Below are positions 2,860 to 12,354 of a DNA stretch of 12,354 nucleotides, in pieces. This DNA is from Candidatus Phoenicimicrobium oleiphilum. GTDB lineage: Bacteria; Atribacterota; Phoenicimicrobiia; Phoenicimicrobiales; Phoenicimicrobiaceae. The translations under genes were made by a program, and so were the position numbers. The notes under the pieces were generated by a model. It ran no database searches and was not told where the DNA came from. It was given only the letters and a program-made list of their open reading frames with translations. Location: positions 1-12,354 of the forward strand of contig JBDIWJ010000044.1 of assembly GCA_039638295.1 (NCBI GenBank), in the 5' to 3' direction. Position 1 is the first letter of the stretch; each line of letters begins with the position of its first letter.

Positions 2860-2888
2860 TTGACAAATTTTATAAATAATGATAAAAT
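2860..2888 (+). promoter_or_regulatory. sigma70/sigmaA promoter for the riboswitch-ANTAR-gdh unit
   Basis: TTGACA 2860-2865, 17-nt spacer, TAAAAT 2883-2888 with extended -10 TG at 2880-2881. Predicted TSS near 2895, just before the aptamer. Confidence 0.8.
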
Positions 2889-2910
2889 TTCAAAAAAATT
2901 GAATATATTT

Positions 2911-3025
2911 ACAGAAGTGTGCCTAGGGTTCCGTCTAAATTAATTATTAGAGTCTGGACCAAGCGGCGCAAGGTATCAACTTGATACTACACTTTTAGGA
3001 TAAAAGCCTGAGAGATAGGTTCTGT
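2911..3025 (+). ncRNA. ykkC-family riboswitch aptamer, most like the ppGpp-sensing subtype 2a
   Basis: Conserved blocks CUAGGGUUCCG (2923-2933), CUGGACCAAG (2954-2963), ACAC and the AUAAAAG loop (3000-3006). P0 ACAGAA/UUCUGU (2911-2916/3020-3025), P1 UGUGCC/GGCGCA, P2 GUAUCA/UGAUAC. P0 is present (absent in guanidine-I) and the loop is AUAAAAG rather than the PRPP-type AUAGAAG. Confidence 0.88.
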
Positions 3026-3060
3026 TAATACAACCATTACCTATTTTTCAGGCTTTTTTT
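3002..3060 (+). terminator. Intrinsic terminator (riboswitch expression platform, ON-switch layout)
   Basis: 19-bp stem AAAAGCCUGAGAGAUAGGU (3002-3020) / ACCUAUUUUUCAGGCUUUU (3039-3057) with a U run to 3060. The left arm is the 3' end of the aptamer, so the two folds exclude each other. Confidence 0.9.
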
Positions 3061-3137
3061 ATAAATAAAAGCATTTAATGCTTTAATTAAATGAAGAAAA
3101 AATTTATTAATTTTAAAAAAATAATAAGGAATATTGT

Positions 3138-3842
3138 ATGGCTGACTTGGATTATAAAGATTATTTAAAGACATTAAATAAAATAAGCAGAGCTATAGTT
3201 TCTGATCTTTATCTTGAGGACATCTTAAAGCTCATCGTGACTCTAACTGCCAACGTGATGAAAGCAAAGGTCTGTAATGTGTGGTTAATAGATGAAAAAA
3301 AACAAGAATTTAATATTAAAGCAACACAATCAATGCATCAGGAATATTTAGATAAAAGAACCATAAAATTAAACGAAGGTATTGTAGGGCTAGTAGCCAG
3401 AGAAAAAAAACCAAAGATAATTTATGATGTATTAAAAGAGGAACAATATAAAGAAAAAAAACTTGCCAGAAAAGAAGGTTTAGTTTCTATGGCAAGTATC
3501 CCTATGATGGTTAGAAATAAAGTTATAGGAGTACTTAATGTATATACCAATAAGCCTTATGAATTTAGTAAAGCGGAAGTTACGCTTTTGAGCACTATTG
3601 CCAATCAGGCAGCAGTGGCTATAGAAAAAACTGAGCTAATAGTTAAAACGAAAATAATTCAAGAAGAGTTAGATACGAGAAAAAGAGTAGAAAGGGCAAA
3701 AGGTATATTAATGGAAGAAAGGAATCTAAACGAAAGTGAGGCTTTTTCTTTAATTAGAAGAACTAGTATGGATAAACGAATTTCTATGAGAGAGGTCGCT
3801 GAAGCTATAATTCTTTCTTATGAAATACGTCAAGTAAAATAA
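3138..3842 (+). CDS. GAF-ANTAR one-component RNA-binding antitermination regulator
   Basis: N-terminal GAF domain (EGIVGLVA...SIPMMVRNKVIGVLNV...F...EVTLLSTIANQAAVAIE), a coiled coil, then ANTAR (RKRVERAKGILMEERNLNESEAFSLIRRTSMDKRISMREVAEAII). No receiver domain. AAGGA RBS at about 3127-3131. Confidence 0.93.
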   Translation: MADLDYKDYLKTLNKISRAIVSDLYLEDILKLIVTLTANVMKAKVCNVWLIDEKKQEFNIKATQSMHQEYLDKRTIKLNEGIVGLVAREKKPKIIYDVLKEEQYKEKKLARKEGLVSMASIPMMVRNKVIGVLNVYTNKPYEFSKAEVTLLSTIANQAAVAIEKTELIVKTKIIQEELDTRKRVERAKGILMEERNLNESEAFSLIRRTSMDKRISMREVAEAIILSYEIRQVK

Positions 3843-3874
3843 TATAAATAAAATACGATATTAACGGTTCGAAT

Positions 3875-3940
3875 TTCTACAAGGGAGTAGAATATACGGC
3901 AAAGAAGCCTAATTATTTCCACAAGGCCAAAGAAGTCCTT
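3875..3940 (+). promoter_or_regulatory. ANTAR target RNA element with three hexaloop hairpins
   Basis: H1 UUCUAC-AAGGGA-GUAGAA (3875-3892); H2 GGC-AAAGAA-GCC (3898-3909); H3 AAGGCC-AAAGAA-GUCCUU (3923-3940, one mismatch). Each has a C-G closed 6-nt loop with A1 and G4, the ANTAR substrate consensus. H3 overlaps the terminator. Confidence 0.85.
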
Positions 3941-3978
3941 TTATGACAATGTTTGTCTTAAGAGGGCTTCTTTTTTTT
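3929..3978 (+). terminator. Intrinsic terminator upstream of gdh, overlapping ANTAR hairpin H3
   Basis: AAAGAAGUCCUUUUA (3929-3943) pairs with UAAGAGGGCUUCUUU (3959-3973), extended by GACAA/UUGUC. U8 tract at 3971-3978. Confidence 0.88.
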
Positions 3979-4123
3979 GAACAGGCCTTTGCACTTAAGA
4001 TAAACAGAAGAAAACAGGAGGTGGTGCGTCTTATTCGGTTCTAAATATTAAATAGAAAAGATAAAAAACATTTTTTATAATTCAAGAAATTTTACTATTA
4101 TTTAGATAGAAAGGGGATTAACA

Positions 4124-5425
4124 ATGGCGAATCAAATGGATACTCTTGAAATGTTACAAATGAAGTTAGAAAAGGATGCTGATAAAATAGATGCTTTTAA
4201 AATGGCACAAATACAGTTAGAAAAAGCTGCCCATAAGATGAATTTGGACTTTAATATTTTATCTCAACTGAAAGAACCAGAAAGAGTATTAATGGTTTCT
4301 ATTCCAGTAAAGATGGATGATGGAACGGTGAAAGTATTTACTGGTTTTAGATCACAATATAATACTGCTCGAGGACCAGCAAAAGGTGGAGTAAGATACC
4401 ATCCTGATGTTACTTTAGATGAAGTGAAAGCTCTTTCTGCCTGGATGACCTGGAAATGCGCGGTGGCGGGGATACCCTATGGTGGAGCCAAAGGAGGAGT
4501 AATTTGCAATCCAAAAGAAATGTCAGAAGGGGAATTAGAGAGACTTTCCCGGAGATATATCTATGAAATTTCATCTATTATTGGTCCTGAAAAAGATATT
4601 CCCGCACCTGATGTATATACAACTCCCCAGGTTATGGGTTGGTATATAGACACCTATAATAAACTTACTGGTAAAGCAAATTATTCCACCATAACTGGGA
4701 AACCTTTAGAATTATGGGGTTCGGAAGGAAGAGGAGAAGCAACTGCTCGTGGTTTATCTTATACAGTAGAAGTAGCTGTCAAACAACTAAATATCAACCC
4801 TTCAGAGGCAAAAGTAGTAATTCAAGGATATGGTAATGCTGGTTCAATTGCTGCAAAATTACTACACGATCAAGGATATAAAATTATTGCGGTTAGTGAT
4901 TCAAAAGGTGGGGCTTACAATCCTCAAGGGATCGATCCCTTGCAAATTTTAAGTTATAAGGCTACAACTGGTTCTGTAAGGGGATTTCCAAATACGAAGT
5001 TCATCTCTAATGAGGATTTACTGGAATTAGAATGCGATGTTTTAGTACCGGCAGCCTTAGAAGGGGTAATTACCGAGAAGAATGCAAATAATATAAGAGC
5101 GAAGATTGTAGCTGAAGCTGCTAATGGGCCTACTACTCCTGAAGCGGATGAAATACTGTTCCATAAAGGAGTTTTTGTAATACCTGATATTTTAGCTAAT
5201 TCTGGGGGAGTTACTGTATCTTACTTTGAGTGGGTACAAGGTCTTTATGGTTATTTCTGGGACGAAGAAAGAGTAAATAGAAGGTTAAAAAAATTAATGG
5301 TAAAGGCCTTTAGTGAAGTATTGAGAGTTGCTCAAAAGGAAAAGACAGACAATCGAACTGCTGCCTACATATATGCTATATCACAAGTAGCGAAAGCAAT
5401 GAAAGCACGAGGGATTTGGCCCTAA
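4124..5425 (+). CDS. gdhA: Glutamate dehydrogenase (Glu/Leu/Phe/Val dehydrogenase family)
   Basis: GPAKGGVRYHP, MTWK, PYGGAKGG, DIPAPDV, GRGEATARG, QGYGNAG dinucleotide motif, EAANGP and PDILANSGGVTVSYFEWVQ. AAAGGGGA RBS at 4110-4117. Confidence 0.95.
   Translation: MANQMDTLEMLQMKLEKDADKIDAFKMAQIQLEKAAHKMNLDFNILSQLKEPERVLMVSIPVKMDDGTVKVFTGFRSQYNTARGPAKGGVRYHPDVTLDEVKALSAWMTWKCAVAGIPYGGAKGGVICNPKEMSEGELERLSRRYIYEISSIIGPEKDIPAPDVYTTPQVMGWYIDTYNKLTGKANYSTITGKPLELWGSEGRGEATARGLSYTVEVAVKQLNINPSEAKVVIQGYGNAGSIAAKLLHDQGYKIIAVSDSKGGAYNPQGIDPLQILSYKATTGSVRGFPNTKFISNEDLLELECDVLVPAALEGVITEKNANNIRAKIVAEAANGPTTPEADEILFHKGVFVIPDILANSGGVTVSYFEWVQGLYGYFWDEERVNRRLKKLMVKAFSEVLRVAQKEKTDNRTAAYIYAISQVAKAMKARGIWP
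4134..4235 (+). repeat. Degenerate in-frame 51-nt tandem duplication at the gdh 5' end
   Basis: 4134-4184 vs 4185-4235 are 39/51 identical with no gaps (counted by hand). They encode MDTLEMLQMKLEKDADK and IDAFKMAQIQLEKAAHK. Confidence 0.85.
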
Positions 5426-5496
5426 TTTATTTATTATTTATTGGTGATTTGGTAAAAAACAATGAAAAACTCAATTAGCGAAGTGGGTGAGGAAAG

Positions 5497-6912
5497 ATGG
5501 CAAAAATAGAATTTAGTAATCGAACAAATCTTATAGAACAGGCAGTTTATAAATTTAACCTTCAGGATGTAGCGGAACCAAACCTTTATCGGGAAATATT
5601 CCCCTACACAGAGATACCCAGAGTAACCTTTAACCATAGACTTGTTCCGATGTTTGTCCCTGAGGAGATCTGGATTACGGATACTACTTTTAGGGATGGC
5701 CAGCAATCCAGGTCTCCCTATAAAGCAGATCAGATAGTAAGAATTTACGATTATTTACATAAACTTGATAATGATTCAGGGCTTATAAGGCAAACGGAAT
5801 TTTTTATTTATTCTAAAAGTGATAGGGAAGCTGTAGAAAAATGTCTAAGCAAAGGATACAAGTACCCAGAAGTAACCACCTGGATAAGGGCGAAAGAAGA
5901 GGATTTTAAATTAGCAAAAAAGATGGGGATAAAAGAGACCGGCATATTAGTCCCTTGTTCTGATTATCATATATTTAAAAAGCTTAACCTTACTCGGGCA
6001 AAGGCCGTAGAATTATATATTTCTGTTGTCAAATTAGCTTTGGAAAACGGAGTGATCCCCCGATGTCATTTTGAAGATATTACTCGGGCTGATTTTTATG
6101 GGTTTGTAGTTCCCTTTGCCAATGAGCTTATGAAACTTTCCCAACAGGCGAAAATTCCTATCAAAATTAGAGCTTGTGATACTTTAGGTTTAGGTGTTTC
6201 TTATCCAGGAGCTGCTTTGCCTCGATGTGTGCAAGGTATTATATATGGGCTTAGGCATTATGCTGAAGTGCCTTCAGAATGGCTCGAGTGGCACGGACAC
6301 AATGATTTTTATAAAGTTGTAACCAATTCTACTACGGCTTGGCTTTATGGAGCTTCTTCAGTAAATACGTCTCTTTTAGGAATAGGTGAAAGAACGGGAA
6401 ACTGTCCTCTGGAAGCAATGGTTATTGAATATGCTCAACTTAGAGGAACTTTAAAAAATGTAAAATTGGAAGTAATAACTGATATAGCTAATTATTTCGA
6501 AAAAGAAGTCAAATATAAAATTCCATCTCGAACTCCTTTCGTAGGGAAAAATTTTAATAAAACCCGGGCAGGGATTCATGCTGATGGGGTACTAAAATAT
6601 GAAGAAGTTTATAATATTTTCGATACAGAAAAATTTTTAAAAAGACCGTTGAAAGTATCAGTTGGTGCGCATTCAGGTCTGGCAGGAATTGCTTTTTGGG
6701 TAAATAATTATTTTAAGCTTGAAGGTGACAGAAAAATAGATAAAAGAGACTCAAGAATTTCAAAGATAAAAGAATACATAGATAGAGAATATGCCAAAGG
6801 CAGGGTGACAAGTTTTAGCGATGAAGAATTAGAATCTCTAGTAACCTTATTTTTTGAAAGAGGAGTATGGGGCGAAGGAGAAGTACCTGGTTTTGATTCG
6901 GCGGAACCATAA
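5497..6912 (+). CDS. Re-citrate synthase (DRE-TIM metallolyase; often auto-annotated as 2-isopropylmalate or homocitrate synthase)
   Basis: ITDTTFRDGQQ, SDYHIFKKL, RCHFEDITRADFYGFVVPF, EWHGHNDF, GIGERTGN and TRAGIHADG match my recollection of clostridial Re-citrate synthase. No LeuA regulatory domain. Followed by aconitase and icd. Confidence 0.88.
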   Translation: MAKIEFSNRTNLIEQAVYKFNLQDVAEPNLYREIFPYTEIPRVTFNHRLVPMFVPEEIWITDTTFRDGQQSRSPYKADQIVRIYDYLHKLDNDSGLIRQTEFFIYSKSDREAVEKCLSKGYKYPEVTTWIRAKEEDFKLAKKMGIKETGILVPCSDYHIFKKLNLTRAKAVELYISVVKLALENGVIPRCHFEDITRADFYGFVVPFANELMKLSQQAKIPIKIRACDTLGLGVSYPGAALPRCVQGIIYGLRHYAEVPSEWLEWHGHNDFYKVVTNSTTAWLYGASSVNTSLLGIGERTGNCPLEAMVIEYAQLRGTLKNVKLEVITDIANYFEKEVKYKIPSRTPFVGKNFNKTRAGIHADGVLKYEEVYNIFDTEKFLKRPLKVSVGAHSGLAGIAFWVNNYFKLEGDRKIDKRDSRISKIKEYIDREYAKGRVTSFSDEELESLVTLFFERGVWGEGEVPGFDSAEP

Positions 6913-6934
6913 GGAAAGAGGAGGTTTTTTAATT

Positions 6935-8857
6935 ATGCAATTAACAGTTACACAAAAGATAATAAATAAGCATTTGATAAATGGGGAGATGATTCCAGGG
7001 AGAGAGATTGCAATAAGTATTGACCAGACACTCACTCAGGATTCAACCGGAACTATGACCTATCTTGAACTTGAGGCTTTAGGCATTGATAAGATAAAGA
7101 CTAAAAAATCAATAGCTTATATTGATCACAATATGCTGCAAACAGGGGCTGAAAACGCTGATGATCATATTTATATTCAAACAGTAACCAGTAAGTACGG
7201 AATATTTTTTTCAAAACCAGGTAATGGGATATGCCATCAAGTTCATTTAGAGAGATTTGCTGTTCCAGGGCAGACCCTTTTAGGTTCGGATAGCCATACG
7301 CCGACAGCTGGGGCGGTAGGGATGTTAGCTATAGGTGCAGGAGGGATGGATGTTGCTGTAGCTATGGGTAGTGGAGAATATTATATGACTTTGCCAAAAA
7401 TTGTAAAAGTAGAACTCAAAGGGCAATTAAAACCTTGGGTATCTGCAAAGGATATCATACTTGAACTTTTAAAAAGACTGACTGTTAAAGGTGGAATAGG
7501 AAAGATATTTGAATATTCTGGTGAGGGTATCAAAGAGCTGTCTGTCCCTCAGAGGGCAACAATTGCTAATATGGGAGCAGAATCGGGGGCGTTAACTTCT
7601 ATATTTCCGAGTGACGAAATAACCTTAAATTTTTTAAAGGCCCAAGGCAGAGAAAATGAATTTTCAAAAATAGAAGCAGATAAAGGAGCAATTTATGATG
7701 AGGAGATAGAAATAAACCTTTATCAATTAGAGCCCTTAGTAGCCTGTCCTCATAGCCCAGATAGGGTAGTACCAGTATCTTCTTTAAGAGGGCTTAGAGT
7801 TGATCAAGTGGTTATAGGCAGTTGCACAAATTCTTCATATAGTGATTTAATGAAAGTAGCGAAAATTCTTAAGGATAAAACCATTGCTAAACACGTTTCT
7901 TTGGCCATAGCACCAGGGTCAAAACAAGTTTTGTCTATGCTTGCTAAAAATGGAGCTCTAGCAACACTAATTGAGTCAGGTGCAAGGATTCTTGAATGTG
8001 CTTGTGGTCCCTGTATTGGTATGGGTCAATCACCTTCCACAAATGGTGTGTCTTTAAGGACCTTTAATCGCAATTTTGAAGGGAGGTCTGGTACATTTTC
8101 AGCAAAAATCTATTTGGTTAGTCCCGAGGTTGCTGCAGTATCAGCCATTAACGGCTATTTGAGTGATCCAAGGGAATTAGGGAAGCCTCCTTTAGTTAAA
8201 GAACCAGAGCTATTCTTAGTAAATGATAATTTAATTATACCACCAACTAATAATCTTGATGAAATAAAAATAATAAAGGGGCCTAATATAAAACCGTTTC
8301 CATTAGGCAAGCCTTTAAGCTCAAAGATTCAGGGGAAAGTTTTAATAAAGCTGGGGGATAATATTACAACTGACCATATTATGCCATCGAATGCTAAATT
8401 ACTCCCTTATAGATCAAACATTCCTTATCTTTCTAATTATTGTCTGACTCCTTGTGATAAAGATTTCCCCGAGAAGGCTAAGAAAAATAGAGGAGGTTTT
8501 ATAGTTGGGGGTATTAATTATGGACAAGGTTCAAGTAGAGAACATGCCGCCCTTGTTCCTTTGTATCTTGGGATAAAAGTAGTTTTAGCAAAGTCATTTG
8601 CCAGGATACATAAGGCAAATCTTATTAATAGTGGGATAATCCCCTTAGCTTTTAAAAATTTAGAAGATTATGACTATGTTGAGGAAGGAGATGAACTTTT
8701 GATTGAAGATGTCATTTCCCAGGTCAAGGGTAAAACAATTAATGTTATAAATATGACTAAGGACAAAGAATATAAGATGATTTTAGATATTACTCCCCGA
8801 CAGAGAGAGATAATAATTCAAGGAGGTCTTTTGAATTTAATAAGATTGAAAAAATAA
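6935..8857 (+). CDS. Aconitate hydratase (short single-chain type, about 640 aa)
   Basis: QDSTG, DHN, GICHQ, GSDSHT, Fe-S ligands GSCTN and CACGPCIG, RNFEGR, TTDHI and NYGQGSSREHA. Start moved from 6854 to ATG 6935 because GAGGAGG lies at 6918-6924 and this removes the overlap with the upstream gene. Confidence 0.92.
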   Translation: MQLTVTQKIINKHLINGEMIPGREIAISIDQTLTQDSTGTMTYLELEALGIDKIKTKKSIAYIDHNMLQTGAENADDHIYIQTVTSKYGIFFSKPGNGICHQVHLERFAVPGQTLLGSDSHTPTAGAVGMLAIGAGGMDVAVAMGSGEYYMTLPKIVKVELKGQLKPWVSAKDIILELLKRLTVKGGIGKIFEYSGEGIKELSVPQRATIANMGAESGALTSIFPSDEITLNFLKAQGRENEFSKIEADKGAIYDEEIEINLYQLEPLVACPHSPDRVVPVSSLRGLRVDQVVIGSCTNSSYSDLMKVAKILKDKTIAKHVSLAIAPGSKQVLSMLAKNGALATLIESGARILECACGPCIGMGQSPSTNGVSLRTFNRNFEGRSGTFSAKIYLVSPEVAAVSAINGYLSDPRELGKPPLVKEPELFLVNDNLIIPPTNNLDEIKIIKGPNIKPFPLGKPLSSKIQGKVLIKLGDNITTDHIMPSNAKLLPYRSNIPYLSNYCLTPCDKDFPEKAKKNRGGFIVGGINYGQGSSREHAALVPLYLGIKVVLAKSFARIHKANLINSGIIPLAFKNLEDYDYVEEGDELLIEDVISQVKGKTINVINMTKDKEYKMILDITPRQREIIIQGGLLNLIRLKK

Positions 8858-8918
8858 AAGAGTAATTTAATTGTAGTTGAAATATTAAAAAAGAAAAAGG
8901 AAAAACTTAAAGTTAAAT

Positions 8919-9114
8919 TCGTATCTAATAACTCGTATATCGTTAAGATAGTTAACAAGTTTACCCGTTACCTGGTTCAAGAATATAAAACTTTTACTTA
9001 ACTGATTAATTCTTATTATTCAACCGAGAACTTGTTTTTGAAATTAACGATTAGAATTAACTGACTAACTGGCAAACGGGGTAACTAGGAAACTATACGC
9101 ATACTATATACTAT
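8919..9114. repeat. Nested, inverted, degenerate 7-mer and 8-mer micro-arrays in the aconitase-icd spacer
   Basis: Left: TCGTATC/TAATAAC/TCGTATA/TCGTTAA (8919-8946), then GTT-initiated octamers at 8951, 8959, 8967 and 8975. Right: octamers ending in AAC at 9061, 9069, 9077, 9085 and 9093, then TATACGC/ATACTAT/ATACTAT (9094-9114). Confidence 0.6.
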
Positions 9115-9151
9115 GACTGATTAACTAATTTAATGGCAGGAGGTGACTTAA

Positions 9152-10150
9152 TTGACTTATAATATCACCTTAATTCCGGGGGATGGGATTGGTCCGCAAG
9201 TTACCGAAGCGGCTAAAATGGTTTTGGAGGTAAGCGGAGTAAATATTAACTGGGAAGTTGTAGAAGCTGGACAAAAGGCCATTCAAAAATATGGCACACC
9301 TCTTCCTGATTTTGTGATAGATAGTATCAAAAGAAATAGAGTGGCATTAAAAGGACCGGTTACAACACCTATAGGGACAGGTTTCAGAAGTATTAATGTA
9401 GCATTAAGACAAGCGTTAAACTTATATGCAAATGTTAGACCTGTAAAGTCATATAAAGGTATATCATCAAGATATGATGGTATTGATTTGATAATAGTTA
9501 GAGAAAATACAGAAGATCTTTATGCTGGAATAGAGCATAAAATAGGAGAAGATGCAGCTGAGAGTATAAAAATAATAACTAGAAAGGCGAGCGAAAGGAT
9601 TGCAAAGTTTGCTTTTGAACTGGCCAAGAAAGGAGAGAGGAGAAAAGTTACAGCAGTTCACAAGGCAAATATAATGAAATATACAGACGGACTTTTTTTA
9701 GATTGTGTTAGAAAAGTGTCTCAAGAATACCCTAAGATAATTTTTGAAAATGTGATAGTTGATGCAATGAGTATGAAGCTGGTTCAAACACCTCAAGATT
9801 ATGAGGTTTTGGTTATGCCAAATCTTTATGGAGATATACTCTCCGATTTAGCTGCAGGGTTGGTTGGTGGATTAGGGATAGTGCCGGGAGCTAATATAGG
9901 GGAGATGGAAGCTGTATTCGAGCCCGTACATGGATCTGCTCCTGAGTTAGACCCAAATATGGGTAATCCGACAGCGGCAATTTTGTCAGGAGTTATGATG
10001 TTAAGATATTTAGGCGAAAGTAAGGCAGCAGATAAGGTAGAAAAAGCTGTAGAAAAAGTGTTAGAAGAAGGAAGATATTTAACTTGTGATATCGGTGGTA
10101 ATACCAGGACATTAGAATATGCTGAAGCCATTATAGATGCTTTAGAATGA
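9152..10150 (+). CDS. icd: Isocitrate dehydrogenase (isocitrate/isopropylmalate dehydrogenase family), probably NAD-type
   Basis: IPGDGIG, the isocitrate-type substrate loop TTPIGTGFRSINVALRQ (Ser/Asn), RENTED, HKANIMK, NLYGDILSD and EPVHGSAP. TTG start with AGGAGGTG at 9138-9145. Follows citrate synthase and aconitase. Confidence 0.85.
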   Translation: MTYNITLIPGDGIGPQVTEAAKMVLEVSGVNINWEVVEAGQKAIQKYGTPLPDFVIDSIKRNRVALKGPVTTPIGTGFRSINVALRQALNLYANVRPVKSYKGISSRYDGIDLIIVRENTEDLYAGIEHKIGEDAAESIKIITRKASERIAKFAFELAKKGERRKVTAVHKANIMKYTDGLFLDCVRKVSQEYPKIIFENVIVDAMSMKLVQTPQDYEVLVMPNLYGDILSDLAAGLVGGLGIVPGANIGEMEAVFEPVHGSAPELDPNMGNPTAAILSGVMMLRYLGESKAADKVEKAVEKVLEEGRYLTCDIGGNTRTLEYAEAIIDALE

Positions 10151-10178: not shown

Positions 10179-10207
10179 TTGACATACAATATGTTTTAAT
10201 ATATTAT
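10179..10207 (+). promoter_or_regulatory. sigma70/sigmaA promoter for the ilvD leader
   Basis: TTGACA 10179-10184, 17-nt spacer, TATTAT 10202-10207. An overlapping TATAAT at 10205-10210 would need a 20-nt spacer. Confidence 0.75.
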
Positions 10208-10221
10208 AATCTTCAAATTAC

Positions 10222-10343
10222 GGGAGTATGCCTAAGATTCTGTCTTATCAAGTTAAGATTAAAGCCTGGACCAAGTGGTATAAAACGCTAATAGTAGTAT
10301 TGGTGTTACACCTTGGGTATAAAAGACCCCAGCGGATAGGCCC
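10222..10343 (+). ncRNA. Second ykkC-family riboswitch aptamer (ppGpp subtype 2a-like, variant 5' core) upstream of ilvD
   Basis: CUAAGAUUCUG (10232-10242), CUGGACCAAG (10266-10275), P1 UAUGCC/GGUAUA, P2 AACGCUAAUA/UAUUGGUGUU, ACACC, GGGU-AUAAAAG-ACCC-CAGCGG-AUAGG, and short P0 GGG/CCC. Branched-chain amino acid genes are the classic subtype 2a association. Confidence 0.83.
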
Positions 10344-10388
10344 CTTTTGTTTTAATTAACGAAATGGATTTATTTGTTGGGGGTTTTT
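10327..10388 (+). terminator. Intrinsic terminator overlapping the 3' end of the second aptamer
   Basis: CCCCAGCGGAUAGG (10327-10340) pairs with UUUAUUUGUUGGGG (10369-10382, several G-U pairs), with inner stem UUUGUU/AACGAA and U5 at 10384-10388. Confidence 0.7.
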
Positions 10389-10426
10389 ATAAACGTGAAA
10401 TAAAAAATTAAAAGTAGGTGAAAAAT

Positions 10427-12179: not shown

Positions 12180-12208
12180 TTGACATTTAGAATTAATTGT
12201 AGTATAGT
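12180..12208 (+). promoter_or_regulatory. sigma70/sigmaA promoter for the T-box leader
   Basis: TTGACA 12180-12185, 17-nt spacer, TATAGT 12203-12208. Confidence 0.75.
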
Positions 12209-12230
12209 TTTTTACAATAAATAAAAAATA

Positions 12231-12354
12231 AAACTTTGGAAGGAAAAGTAGGCTAACTGAATTGCTAAAGAGAGCCAATGGGTGGTGTGAATTGGCAGCA
12301 TAAGTTTGTCGAAGATCTCGCCTTCAATATTTTAGGCACAGGTGAACTTTTAAT
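12231..12354 (+). ncRNA. T-box riboswitch leader, Stem I (truncated by window end), probable Leu (CUC) specifier
   Basis: GAAGG (12239-12243) pairs with CCUUC (12321-12325). AGUA/GAA loop-E motif, AGAGAG bulge, GCCAAU/AUUGGC stem with a GGUGUGA distal loop, and specifier loop GAAGAUCUCG with CUC at 12317-12319 followed by a purine. The T-box antiterminator is outside the window. Confidence 0.8.

Follow-up and report, generated by a model that had tools for sequence, protein, structure and literature searches.

A (p)ppGpp-type riboswitch and a GAF-ANTAR protein predicted to act in series ahead of glutamate synthesis genes in Candidatus Phoenicimicrobium oleiphilum

Two attenuators around one regulatory gene

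The subject of this study is a stretch of 12,354 nucleotides (nt) from Candidatus Phoenicimicrobium oleiphilum (Atribacterota; contig JBDIWJ010000044.1), hereafter the window, which is an entire contig of a 1.65-Mb genome that is 91% complete. A ykkC riboswitch, a gene for a GAF-ANTAR protein, a set of ANTAR hairpins and four enzyme genes for the synthesis of glutamate follow one another on its forward strand, with one intrinsic terminator ahead of the regulatory gene and another ahead of the enzymes. The original prediction, made from the letters of the sequence, had read this order as a relay in which the riboswitch controls a protein that in turn controls the enzymes. Every part on its list could be located:

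2860..2888, +, sigma70-type promoter with extended -10 (TTGACA-17-TG-TAAAAT); 11/12 match, conserved
2911..3025, +, ykkC aptamer, subtype 2a (guanosine tetra- or pentaphosphate, (p)ppGpp, type) by its features; Rfam match and feature checks
3006..3060, +, intrinsic terminator 1, which cannot form together with aptamer P3/P0 (ON switch); by folding, conserved 14/14
3138..3842, +, GAF-ANTAR one-component antiterminator, 234 amino acids (aa); Pfam and structure model
3875..3892, +, ANTAR hairpin H1, stem of 6 base pairs (bp), loop AAGGGA
3898..3909, +, ANTAR hairpin H2, 3-bp stem, loop AAAGAA
3923..3940, +, ANTAR hairpin H3, 4 bp plus a C.U mismatch and a closing C-G, loop AAAGAA; antiterminator
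3929..3978, +, intrinsic terminator 2, with the H3 loop and 3' strand as its 5' arm; by folding
4124..5425, +, glutamate dehydrogenase (GDH; archaeal/Thermotoga-like GdhA, ELFV dehydrogenase); profile matches
5497..6912, +, DRE-TIM (HMGL-like) enzyme, 471 aa, probable Re-citrate synthase; family and context
6935..8857, +, aconitate hydratase; above the PRK07229 cut-off
9152..10150, +, isocitrate dehydrogenase (Iso_dh); profile matches

The leader RNA matches the ykkC family of Rfam (RF00442) at 2912-3016 with 59.6 bits and an E-value of 9e-9, just below the gathering score of 63, as is expected of a subtype other than guanidine-I; its counterparts in relatives score 47.6-65.4 bits (13/13). The covariance search proposed earlier thus recovered the ykkC RNA, whereas the ANTAR-RNA family gave no match. 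Rfam matches to SpF19, CRISPR-DR15 and sR24 in the window are at chance level. The aptamer has a P0 helix (2911-2916/3020-3025), G2917, a G-C at 2963-2964, ACAC at 2989-2992, a fully paired P3 (2993-3014) lacking the S-turn G, and an AUAGG strand at 3015-3019. All 14 loci compared have the P0 helix with A5 and an unpaired G6, as well as a pyrimidine (C) after G48, where guanidine-I RNAs have A. The G that defines RNAs for phosphoribosyl pyrophosphate (PRPP), at what we take to be position 96 of this RNA, is replaced by A within a fully paired P3 in 14/14, and no S-turn is present. ACAC after P2 is kept in 13/14, and the strand between P3 and P0 reads AUAGG in 12 loci, AGAGG in one and AUUGG in one; the criteria for subtype 2a given in PMC6031431 and PMC9881157 (subtype definitions also in PMC7266159) expect here 4-5 nt of the form (A)NARG/NAGG. 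Although fully paired and in this unlike the classical ilv-type P3, the P3 of our RNA is nearly identical to that of the natA aptamers C94 and C101, reported in PMC9881157 as validated (p)ppGpp binders that prefer pppGpp. The long P1 (about 53 nt) and the NAGG strand suggest that the ligand is ppGpp or both alarmones.

Guanidine-I and PRPP are rejected as ligands on their diagnostic bases, and subtypes 2c and 2d are set apart by gene context, as the NUDIX/HAD or EamA/TauE genes found downstream of them have no match here. The link of subtype 2a to genes for branched-chain amino acids (BCAA) or glutamate is seen at this locus as well. Judged by these features, the aptamer is predicted to be a (p)ppGpp-type RNA of subtype 2a resembling validated binders, which agrees with the original assignment: all the listed (p)ppGpp features are present and the bases diagnostic of the other two ligands are absent. 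The genome has a RelA/SpoT frame of 716 codons (RelA_SpoT, 158 bits), and CodY was not found in its 91%-complete sequence.

Terminator 1 consists of a stem at 3006-3053 and seven U residues at 3054-3060, and its 5' arm is the 3' strand of aptamer P3/P0. The region folds at -51.6 kcal/mol with the terminator and at -38.7 kcal/mol with P0 and P3 locked. Since the terminator uses the 3' strand of the aptamer, ligand binding would favour read-through; folding thus shows the ON-switch geometry that had been proposed. A simple scan missed both terminators of the locus, their loops being long, and folding reveals them.

Between the terminators lies the gene for the 234-aa regulator, which matches Pfam GAF_2 (E-value 1e-22) and ANTAR (PF03861; 2e-21, 76 bits). 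Its structure model (predicted local distance difference test, pLDDT, 87.7) comprises a GAF domain, a long helix at 145-195 and the ANTAR helices. When the nine RNA-contact residues of EutV named in PMC8934654 are compared, five are identical (R142, K143, E160, M172 and R175), two are conservatively replaced and two are changed. The GAF domain is whole and conserved, at 75-91% within the lineage and 62-68% to homologues in Omnitrophota; among named homologues of the whole regulator, the nearest (76-91% identity) come almost entirely from Atribacterota. Among solved structures, the nearest GAF domains are those of PtsP (profile E-value 9e-29; template modelling score 0.83-0.89 of target), for which sensing of the ratio of glutamine to 2-oxoglutarate has been reported (PMC5024086). 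Homologues in other phyla adjoin genes resembling glnA, amtB and those for glutamate synthase. Nitrogen status is the most likely input of the GAF domain. Inhibition by glutamine, which we favour because it would provide negative feedback on the operon and fit the glnA/amtB contexts, is a tentative proposal falling short of an even chance; some other ligand, or none, is just as plausible, and activation by 2-oxoglutarate is about half as probable as either.

Downstream of this gene, terminator 2 (stem from 3929, eight U residues at 3971-3978) overlaps hairpin H3. Here, too, the terminated state is the more stable one, with -34.7 kcal/mol against -16.9 kcal/mol when H2 and H3 are locked; since locking them destroys the terminator at a cost of about 18 kcal/mol, the default is to stop. 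H3 and the terminator are mutually exclusive in 12/13 close loci, the exception being at a contig end. The proposed tandem of ANTAR hairpins at an ON-switch terminator therefore stands as regards the hexaloops with A1 and G4 and the overlap, but there are three hairpins rather than two. With a strict script (at least 3 bp, hexaloop with A1/G4) all three were found in 10/13 loci and two of the three in the other 3. A1 in the loop of H2 and G4 in the loops of H1 and H2 are invariant, and A1/G4 of the H3 loop is present in 13/13 loci, the most distant row having been read by hand. Of 181 cells in the hairpin stems 97% are paired, as are 88% of 220 in terminator 2 over 13 loci, and H2 has two compensatory pairs, both in the most distant relative. 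H1 and H2 are separated by 5 nt; two relatives and the Desulfobacterota-type loci have longer linkers. The AT-rich spacer between the gene and H1 varies from 42 to 374 nt, with the hairpin block conserved throughout and retained where gdh is absent. The regulator is the sole ANTAR gene found in this genome (one per ANTAR-bearing genome), and a genome-wide scan returned this site as the single triple-hairpin array overlapping a terminator, so that one ANTAR gene is paired with one target. A wider ANTAR regulon was considered and rejected: three other matches to a hairpin pair plus hairpin fold weakly (-11 to -14.5 kcal/mol), with 0-1 such matches in three shuffles.

Four enzyme genes follow. 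The HMGL-like protein lies below all NCBIfam cut-offs, and its identification as a Re-citrate synthase is an inference from family and context. The longest aconitase frame opens at 6854, with 6935 the likelier start, and the best match of the isocitrate dehydrogenase, PRK08997, reaches 431.5 bits against a cut-off of 510. In anaerobes without a full cycle, citrate synthase, aconitase and isocitrate dehydrogenase yield 2-oxoglutarate, which GDH aminates. We infer that this GDH works in the anabolic direction. No canonical glutamate synthase was found in the 91%-complete genome, which has two more distant gdh paralogues and glnA elsewhere. About 40 nt past terminator 2 (4015-4045) and 100 nt before the gdh start, a Shine-Dalgarno-like GGAGGTG is present in 13/13 loci. 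No conserved peptide follows it (in two loci an upstream gdh start, otherwise 1-24 codons), and it may serve in ribosome loading or stabilisation, or be what remains of a gene since lost. In 7/9 relatives showing both genes, icd lies 20-30 nt behind acn. Here the gap is 294 nt (8858-9151) and holds several short TAACTGA-like repeats, a heptamer present 352 times in the genome and reminiscent of the Beggiatoaceae repeats described in PMC4679880. Upstream of the circuit (183-2722) are an EamA transporter and an acyl-CoA ligase; they are outside the conserved block, and upstream neighbours vary.

Conservation across the order and other ykkC RNAs

The ANTAR gene is present in 14 of the 52 genomes of the order, each time with the riboswitch upstream (14/14), and the hairpins are kept in the 13 of these genomes with enough sequence, so that the synteny of ykkC RNA, GAF-ANTAR gene and hairpins, put forward earlier as something to search for, is indeed conserved. 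The gene was not found in the other 38 genomes, which are partly incomplete. Of 11 larger regions, 8 have the full gdh-synthase-acn-icd block; one of the remaining three is cut by a contig end and two depart from it. Four genomes of a sister family have the same aptamer directly before gdh, and in the three of these loci that were read over 12 kb neither an ANTAR gene nor the citrate branch is nearby. Conversely, a search of 74 loci of distant homologues with our own model, which found all controls, gave no ykkC RNA upstream, several of these loci having short flanks.

This distribution looks as if the ANTAR tier had been inserted between the riboswitch and gdh. The simplest history would be that a cassette of regulator and target, having shed its promoter, ended up between the two. 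A quick midpoint-rooted tree, in which the 15 rows of the lineage group as a clade (99) without a settled position among Omnitrophota sequences and apart from other Atribacterota, is compatible with this history. Riboswitch-free versions are seen elsewhere (L068, L110, L112 and L095): each has the GAF-ANTAR gene, a promoter, 2-3 hexaloop hairpins, a terminator and a glutamate-synthase-like gene (527-550 aa). L068 contains a tandem pair of attenuators, along with a terminator closely resembling terminator 2 of the present locus, and L112 belongs to a cultured strain, Desulfobulbus alkaliphilus DSM 24258. In other Atribacterota families, GAF-ANTAR proteins at 49-51% identity (L015-L021) occur without a riboswitch or an adjacent hairpin/terminator. 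The whole cassette, at 89% identity, is also present on a contig of 2 kb (L053) that was probably mis-binned, its bin bearing the label Fusobacteriaceae.

Three more ykkC RNAs precede purE, ilvD and ilvB in this genome. They provide an internal control: the CCCAGGCGG P3 found in PRPP-type RNAs is present in the purE aptamer and absent from those of ilvB and ilvD. The purE RNA (L046; contig C6, 10029-10224) is of PRPP type, and both subtypes therefore coexist in the genome. The ilvD RNA lies within the window, where a second promoter (11/12) and a ykkC riboswitch with its terminator occupy 10179-10392 ahead of ilvD (10418). Its usually invariant core is altered (CUAAGAUUCUG for CUAGGGUUCCG), and it scores 28 bits with Rfam and 53 with our own model. 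No terminator was seen between icd and the ilvD promoter, and read-through from the glutamate operon could reach ilvD. The window closes (12180-12354) with a promoter and a T-box whose specifier-like triplet is CUC (Leu). Its final 99 nt are found again where contig C39 ends; on that contig a ykkC RNA and then ilvB come immediately after the T-box terminator. This arrangement is the tandem of T-box and ppGpp riboswitch published in PMC6003355, here outside Firmicutes.

Across the order, ykkC RNAs occur in 47/52 genomes (at most 8 matches each) and in none of the 34 other genomes of the phylum. Close aptamers precede genes for LivK-like binding proteins, BrnQ, ilvB, gdh, SNF and TRAP transporters, and a class-III aminotransferase. 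We predict that this order-wide set constitutes a large stringent-response riboswitch regulon.

The proposed circuit and competing explanations

We propose that one conserved promoter drives a single transcript comprising the riboswitch, the GAF-ANTAR gene, the hairpins and the enzymes. When the alarmone is low, polymerase would halt near 3060. With (p)ppGpp bound, P0 and P3 would sequester the 5' arm of terminator 1, the regulator would be made and polymerase would get as far as terminator 2. There, an active ANTAR dimer recruited by H1 and H2 would stabilise the weak H3 and block the terminator, and the enzymes that lead from acetyl-CoA and oxaloacetate through citrate and 2-oxoglutarate to glutamate would be expressed. 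The inputs to this AND gate would be the alarm of amino-acid starvation and low fixed nitrogen, and the time needed for the protein to build up would add a delay. Because the alarmone is needed both for making the protein and for polymerase to reach terminator 2, such a circuit would be a coherent feed-forward loop. The idea of a protein-relayed AND gate gains support from those of its steps that can be examined in sequence, and it is refined here to a feed-forward loop with three hairpins. The locus is real and conserved and most likely forms a functioning two-tier attenuation circuit, and we put the chance that it combines (p)ppGpp and a nitrogen signal with full AND logic at roughly 60%. 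A more specific version, in which a GAF-ANTAR protein sensing glutamine or 2-oxoglutarate is licensed by a (p)ppGpp riboswitch to unlock its own mRNA through three hairpins, the cassette having been acquired laterally, without a promoter, ahead of gdh, has somewhat less than even odds.

Several observations count against the AND gate. Some predicted 2a aptamers bound neither ligand (PMC9881157). In the regulator, K147, Y164, N173 and R177 of EutV are replaced by R, F, D and S, and the likeness of its GAF domain to PtsP is at 23-30% identity, with cAMP-binding GAF domains ranking just behind. Both double-sided changes in the hairpins come from one sequence, and 10/500 shuffles do as well; covariation in terminator 2 is not above shuffles (174/500), the sequences being close kin. 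H3 has its C.U mismatch in most rows, and the H2-H3 linker is 13 nt (28 loop to loop; 26-34 in relatives), where EutV is reported to function with linkers of 5-12 nt and to give reduced induction with 14 nt (PMC3369931). One relative has no gdh, and another has only gdh behind the hairpins. On the side of transcription, the promoter scans covered sigma70-type sites only, a 10/12 promoter-like site lies at 4053-4081 downstream of terminator 2, and four RNA runs, out of seven listed, give contigs with flat or patchy cover that includes the silent stretch before the promoter, which DNA could also produce.

AND logic would be broken in two ways, by a GAF domain blind to any signal or by a transcription start downstream of terminator 2. 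The first amounts to a relay in which the riboswitch is the sole regulated input, the GAF domain being a dimerisation scaffold or always on and the ANTAR step acting as a delay, threshold or leak filter. Such a relay would agree with the use of the riboswitch alone on gdh in the sister genomes, with the lack of a known ligand for this GAF family and with the report that ANTAR domains are intrinsically competent to bind RNA (PMC7496416). It is harder to reconcile with a GAF domain that is whole and conserved and with the situation elsewhere, where the same protein serves nitrogen genes at loci without a ykkC RNA, implying an input of its own. We regard this as unlikely, albeit the strongest competitor of the two-input circuit.

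The second possibility, somewhat less probable again, is that the locus comprises two transcription units, with an undetected promoter either before the hairpins or past terminator 2. In the former case AND logic would survive, because the protein itself is gated by the riboswitch; in the latter, there would be an ungated basal route to the enzymes. The spacers before H1, AT-rich and variable in length, leave room for a promoter, homologous targets in other phyla have one of their own, and the site at 4053-4081 is a candidate in this genome. We rejected that site since it is not conserved among related loci, and no internal promoter-like site keeps its sequence or its place across them, the best scores being 7-9 of 12. 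The earlier statement that no convincing promoter lies between the terminators accordingly holds as far as conserved sites go; a non-conserved promoter-like site lies past the second. Moreover, a TTGAC(A/T) box within 110 nt before the hairpins is present in 19/23 loci of other phyla and in 0/12 close loci, against a background of 4%. This rule-based comparison, run over all 67 other-phyla and 13 close loci (the 23 being those with a hairpin overlapping a terminator downstream), reveals a pattern rather than providing a statistical test, as kin loci are non-independent. The upstream promoter, by contrast, is better supported. Four sites in the window match at 11/12, and of these it alone has TG; since promoter-like sites are no more numerous there than by chance (36 versus 42.4 +/- 7.7), the case for it rests on conservation. 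The site scores 11/12 with TG in 13 of the 14 related loci and 10/12 in the remaining one, confirming the single clear promoter initially noted at 2860-2888.

It is improbable that the aptamer senses another nucleotide, as a new ykkC variant or as a sensor of PRPP or nucleoside diphosphates, in which case the first input would not be the stringent alarm. Single bases separate ykkC subtypes, one of which is still an orphan according to the literature cited above, the P3 is unlike that of the ilvB and ilvD aptamers of the same genome, and some close aptamers precede the aminotransferase or SNF/TRAP transporter genes. Against this, the (p)ppGpp features are complete, the P3 type has validated binders, the PRPP-defining G is absent, and the contexts are those of amino-acid genes, with no purine, NUDIX/HAD or EamA/TauE genes downstream. 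Finally, it is scarcely credible that the hairpins are a relic without function and that terminator 2 lowers expression as a leaky intergenic terminator of the ordinary kind: weak covariation statistics and the long H2-H3 spacing would allow it, but the hairpin block is conserved despite the variable spacer and even after loss of gdh, and a stop that separates a regulatory gene from four enzyme genes requires an override.

Relation to known systems and biological meaning

The individual parts of the two-input circuit have precedents. The first attenuator is like the ykkC 2a RNAs of PMC6003355 and PMC9881157 in its aptamer features, in the use of P3 as antiterminator in an ON switch and in the link to glutamate and BCAA genes. 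As tabulated in PMC9881157, 105 such RNAs, mostly from Firmicutes, precede BCAA (78), glutamate synthase (15) and natA-type (12) genes, and its supplement, as searched, has no entry for ANTAR, GAF, gdh or Atribacter. AND logic through two serial terminators is known from the tandem of 2a riboswitch and Leu T-box (PMC6003355); here the second gate would instead be worked by a protein encoded between both terminators.

The eut system (PMC5821096, PMC3369931, PMC8934654) shares with our locus the ANTAR domain, A1/G4 hexaloops over a terminator and a riboswitch as second input, EutV/EutW being combined with the adenosylcobalamin-responsive small RNA EutX/Rli55. It is described there as having a REC-ANTAR response regulator, EutV, a riboswitch acting in trans on a separate sponge RNA, and two hairpins, whereas the present locus has a one-component GAF-ANTAR protein, a riboswitch in cis on the regulator mRNA and three hairpins. 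NasR (NIT-ANTAR; PMC7496416, PMC3369931) is likewise a one-component sensor-ANTAR protein with nitrogen targets, but has another sensor domain and, in these accounts, no upstream riboswitch. The same two papers predict ANTAR regulons of glutamate synthase genes in Desulfotomaculum, and by their accounts no GAF-ANTAR protein had been characterised as of 2012 (PMC3369931) and 2020 (PMC7496416). The hutPHUIGM operon of B. subtilis (PMC12591593) resembles the locus in having the antiterminator gene first, a terminator before the enzymes, one transcript and an upstream layer of control. It differs in that this layer is DNA-binding (CodY/CcpA), that HutP is not an ANTAR protein and binds NAG triplets, and that the operon is catabolic.

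Thus, both the parts and the AND logic are precedented (T-box plus ppGpp riboswitch, eut, hutP), while the wiring itself was not found in print. In a search chiefly of the open literature, no published report combined ANTAR with a ppGpp riboswitch or ykkC, or Atribacter with a riboswitch. GAF-ANTAR returned one passing mention, and riboswitch with antiterminator protein and feed-forward returned only eut-type and review papers. The earlier impression of an undescribed architecture therefore held within that literature, although the supplements of PMC6003355 and PMC3369931 could list such loci.

The locus illustrates a way in which two known RNA-level devices could be joined serially via a protein, and it preserves likely evolutionary steps: the riboswitch on gdh alone, the regulator with its own promoter elsewhere, and the fused circuit here. 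Predicted (p)ppGpp riboswitches are extended to Atribacterota. For the uncharacterised GAF-ANTAR class, the locus defines an RNA target and narrows the candidate ligands to a few, in a tractable format of a 234-aa protein and a 110-nt RNA, and with its three hairpins this target would put the successive-binding model for ANTAR proteins to the test. If the more specific version of the circuit is true, it would include the first riboswitch in cis on an ANTAR regulator and the first GAF-ANTAR protein with an assigned target and ligand class. It would also mean that a CodY-less lineage of the deep biosphere has an almost wholly RNA-level stringent regulon, and it suggests how slow-living anaerobes may choose between making and scavenging glutamate.

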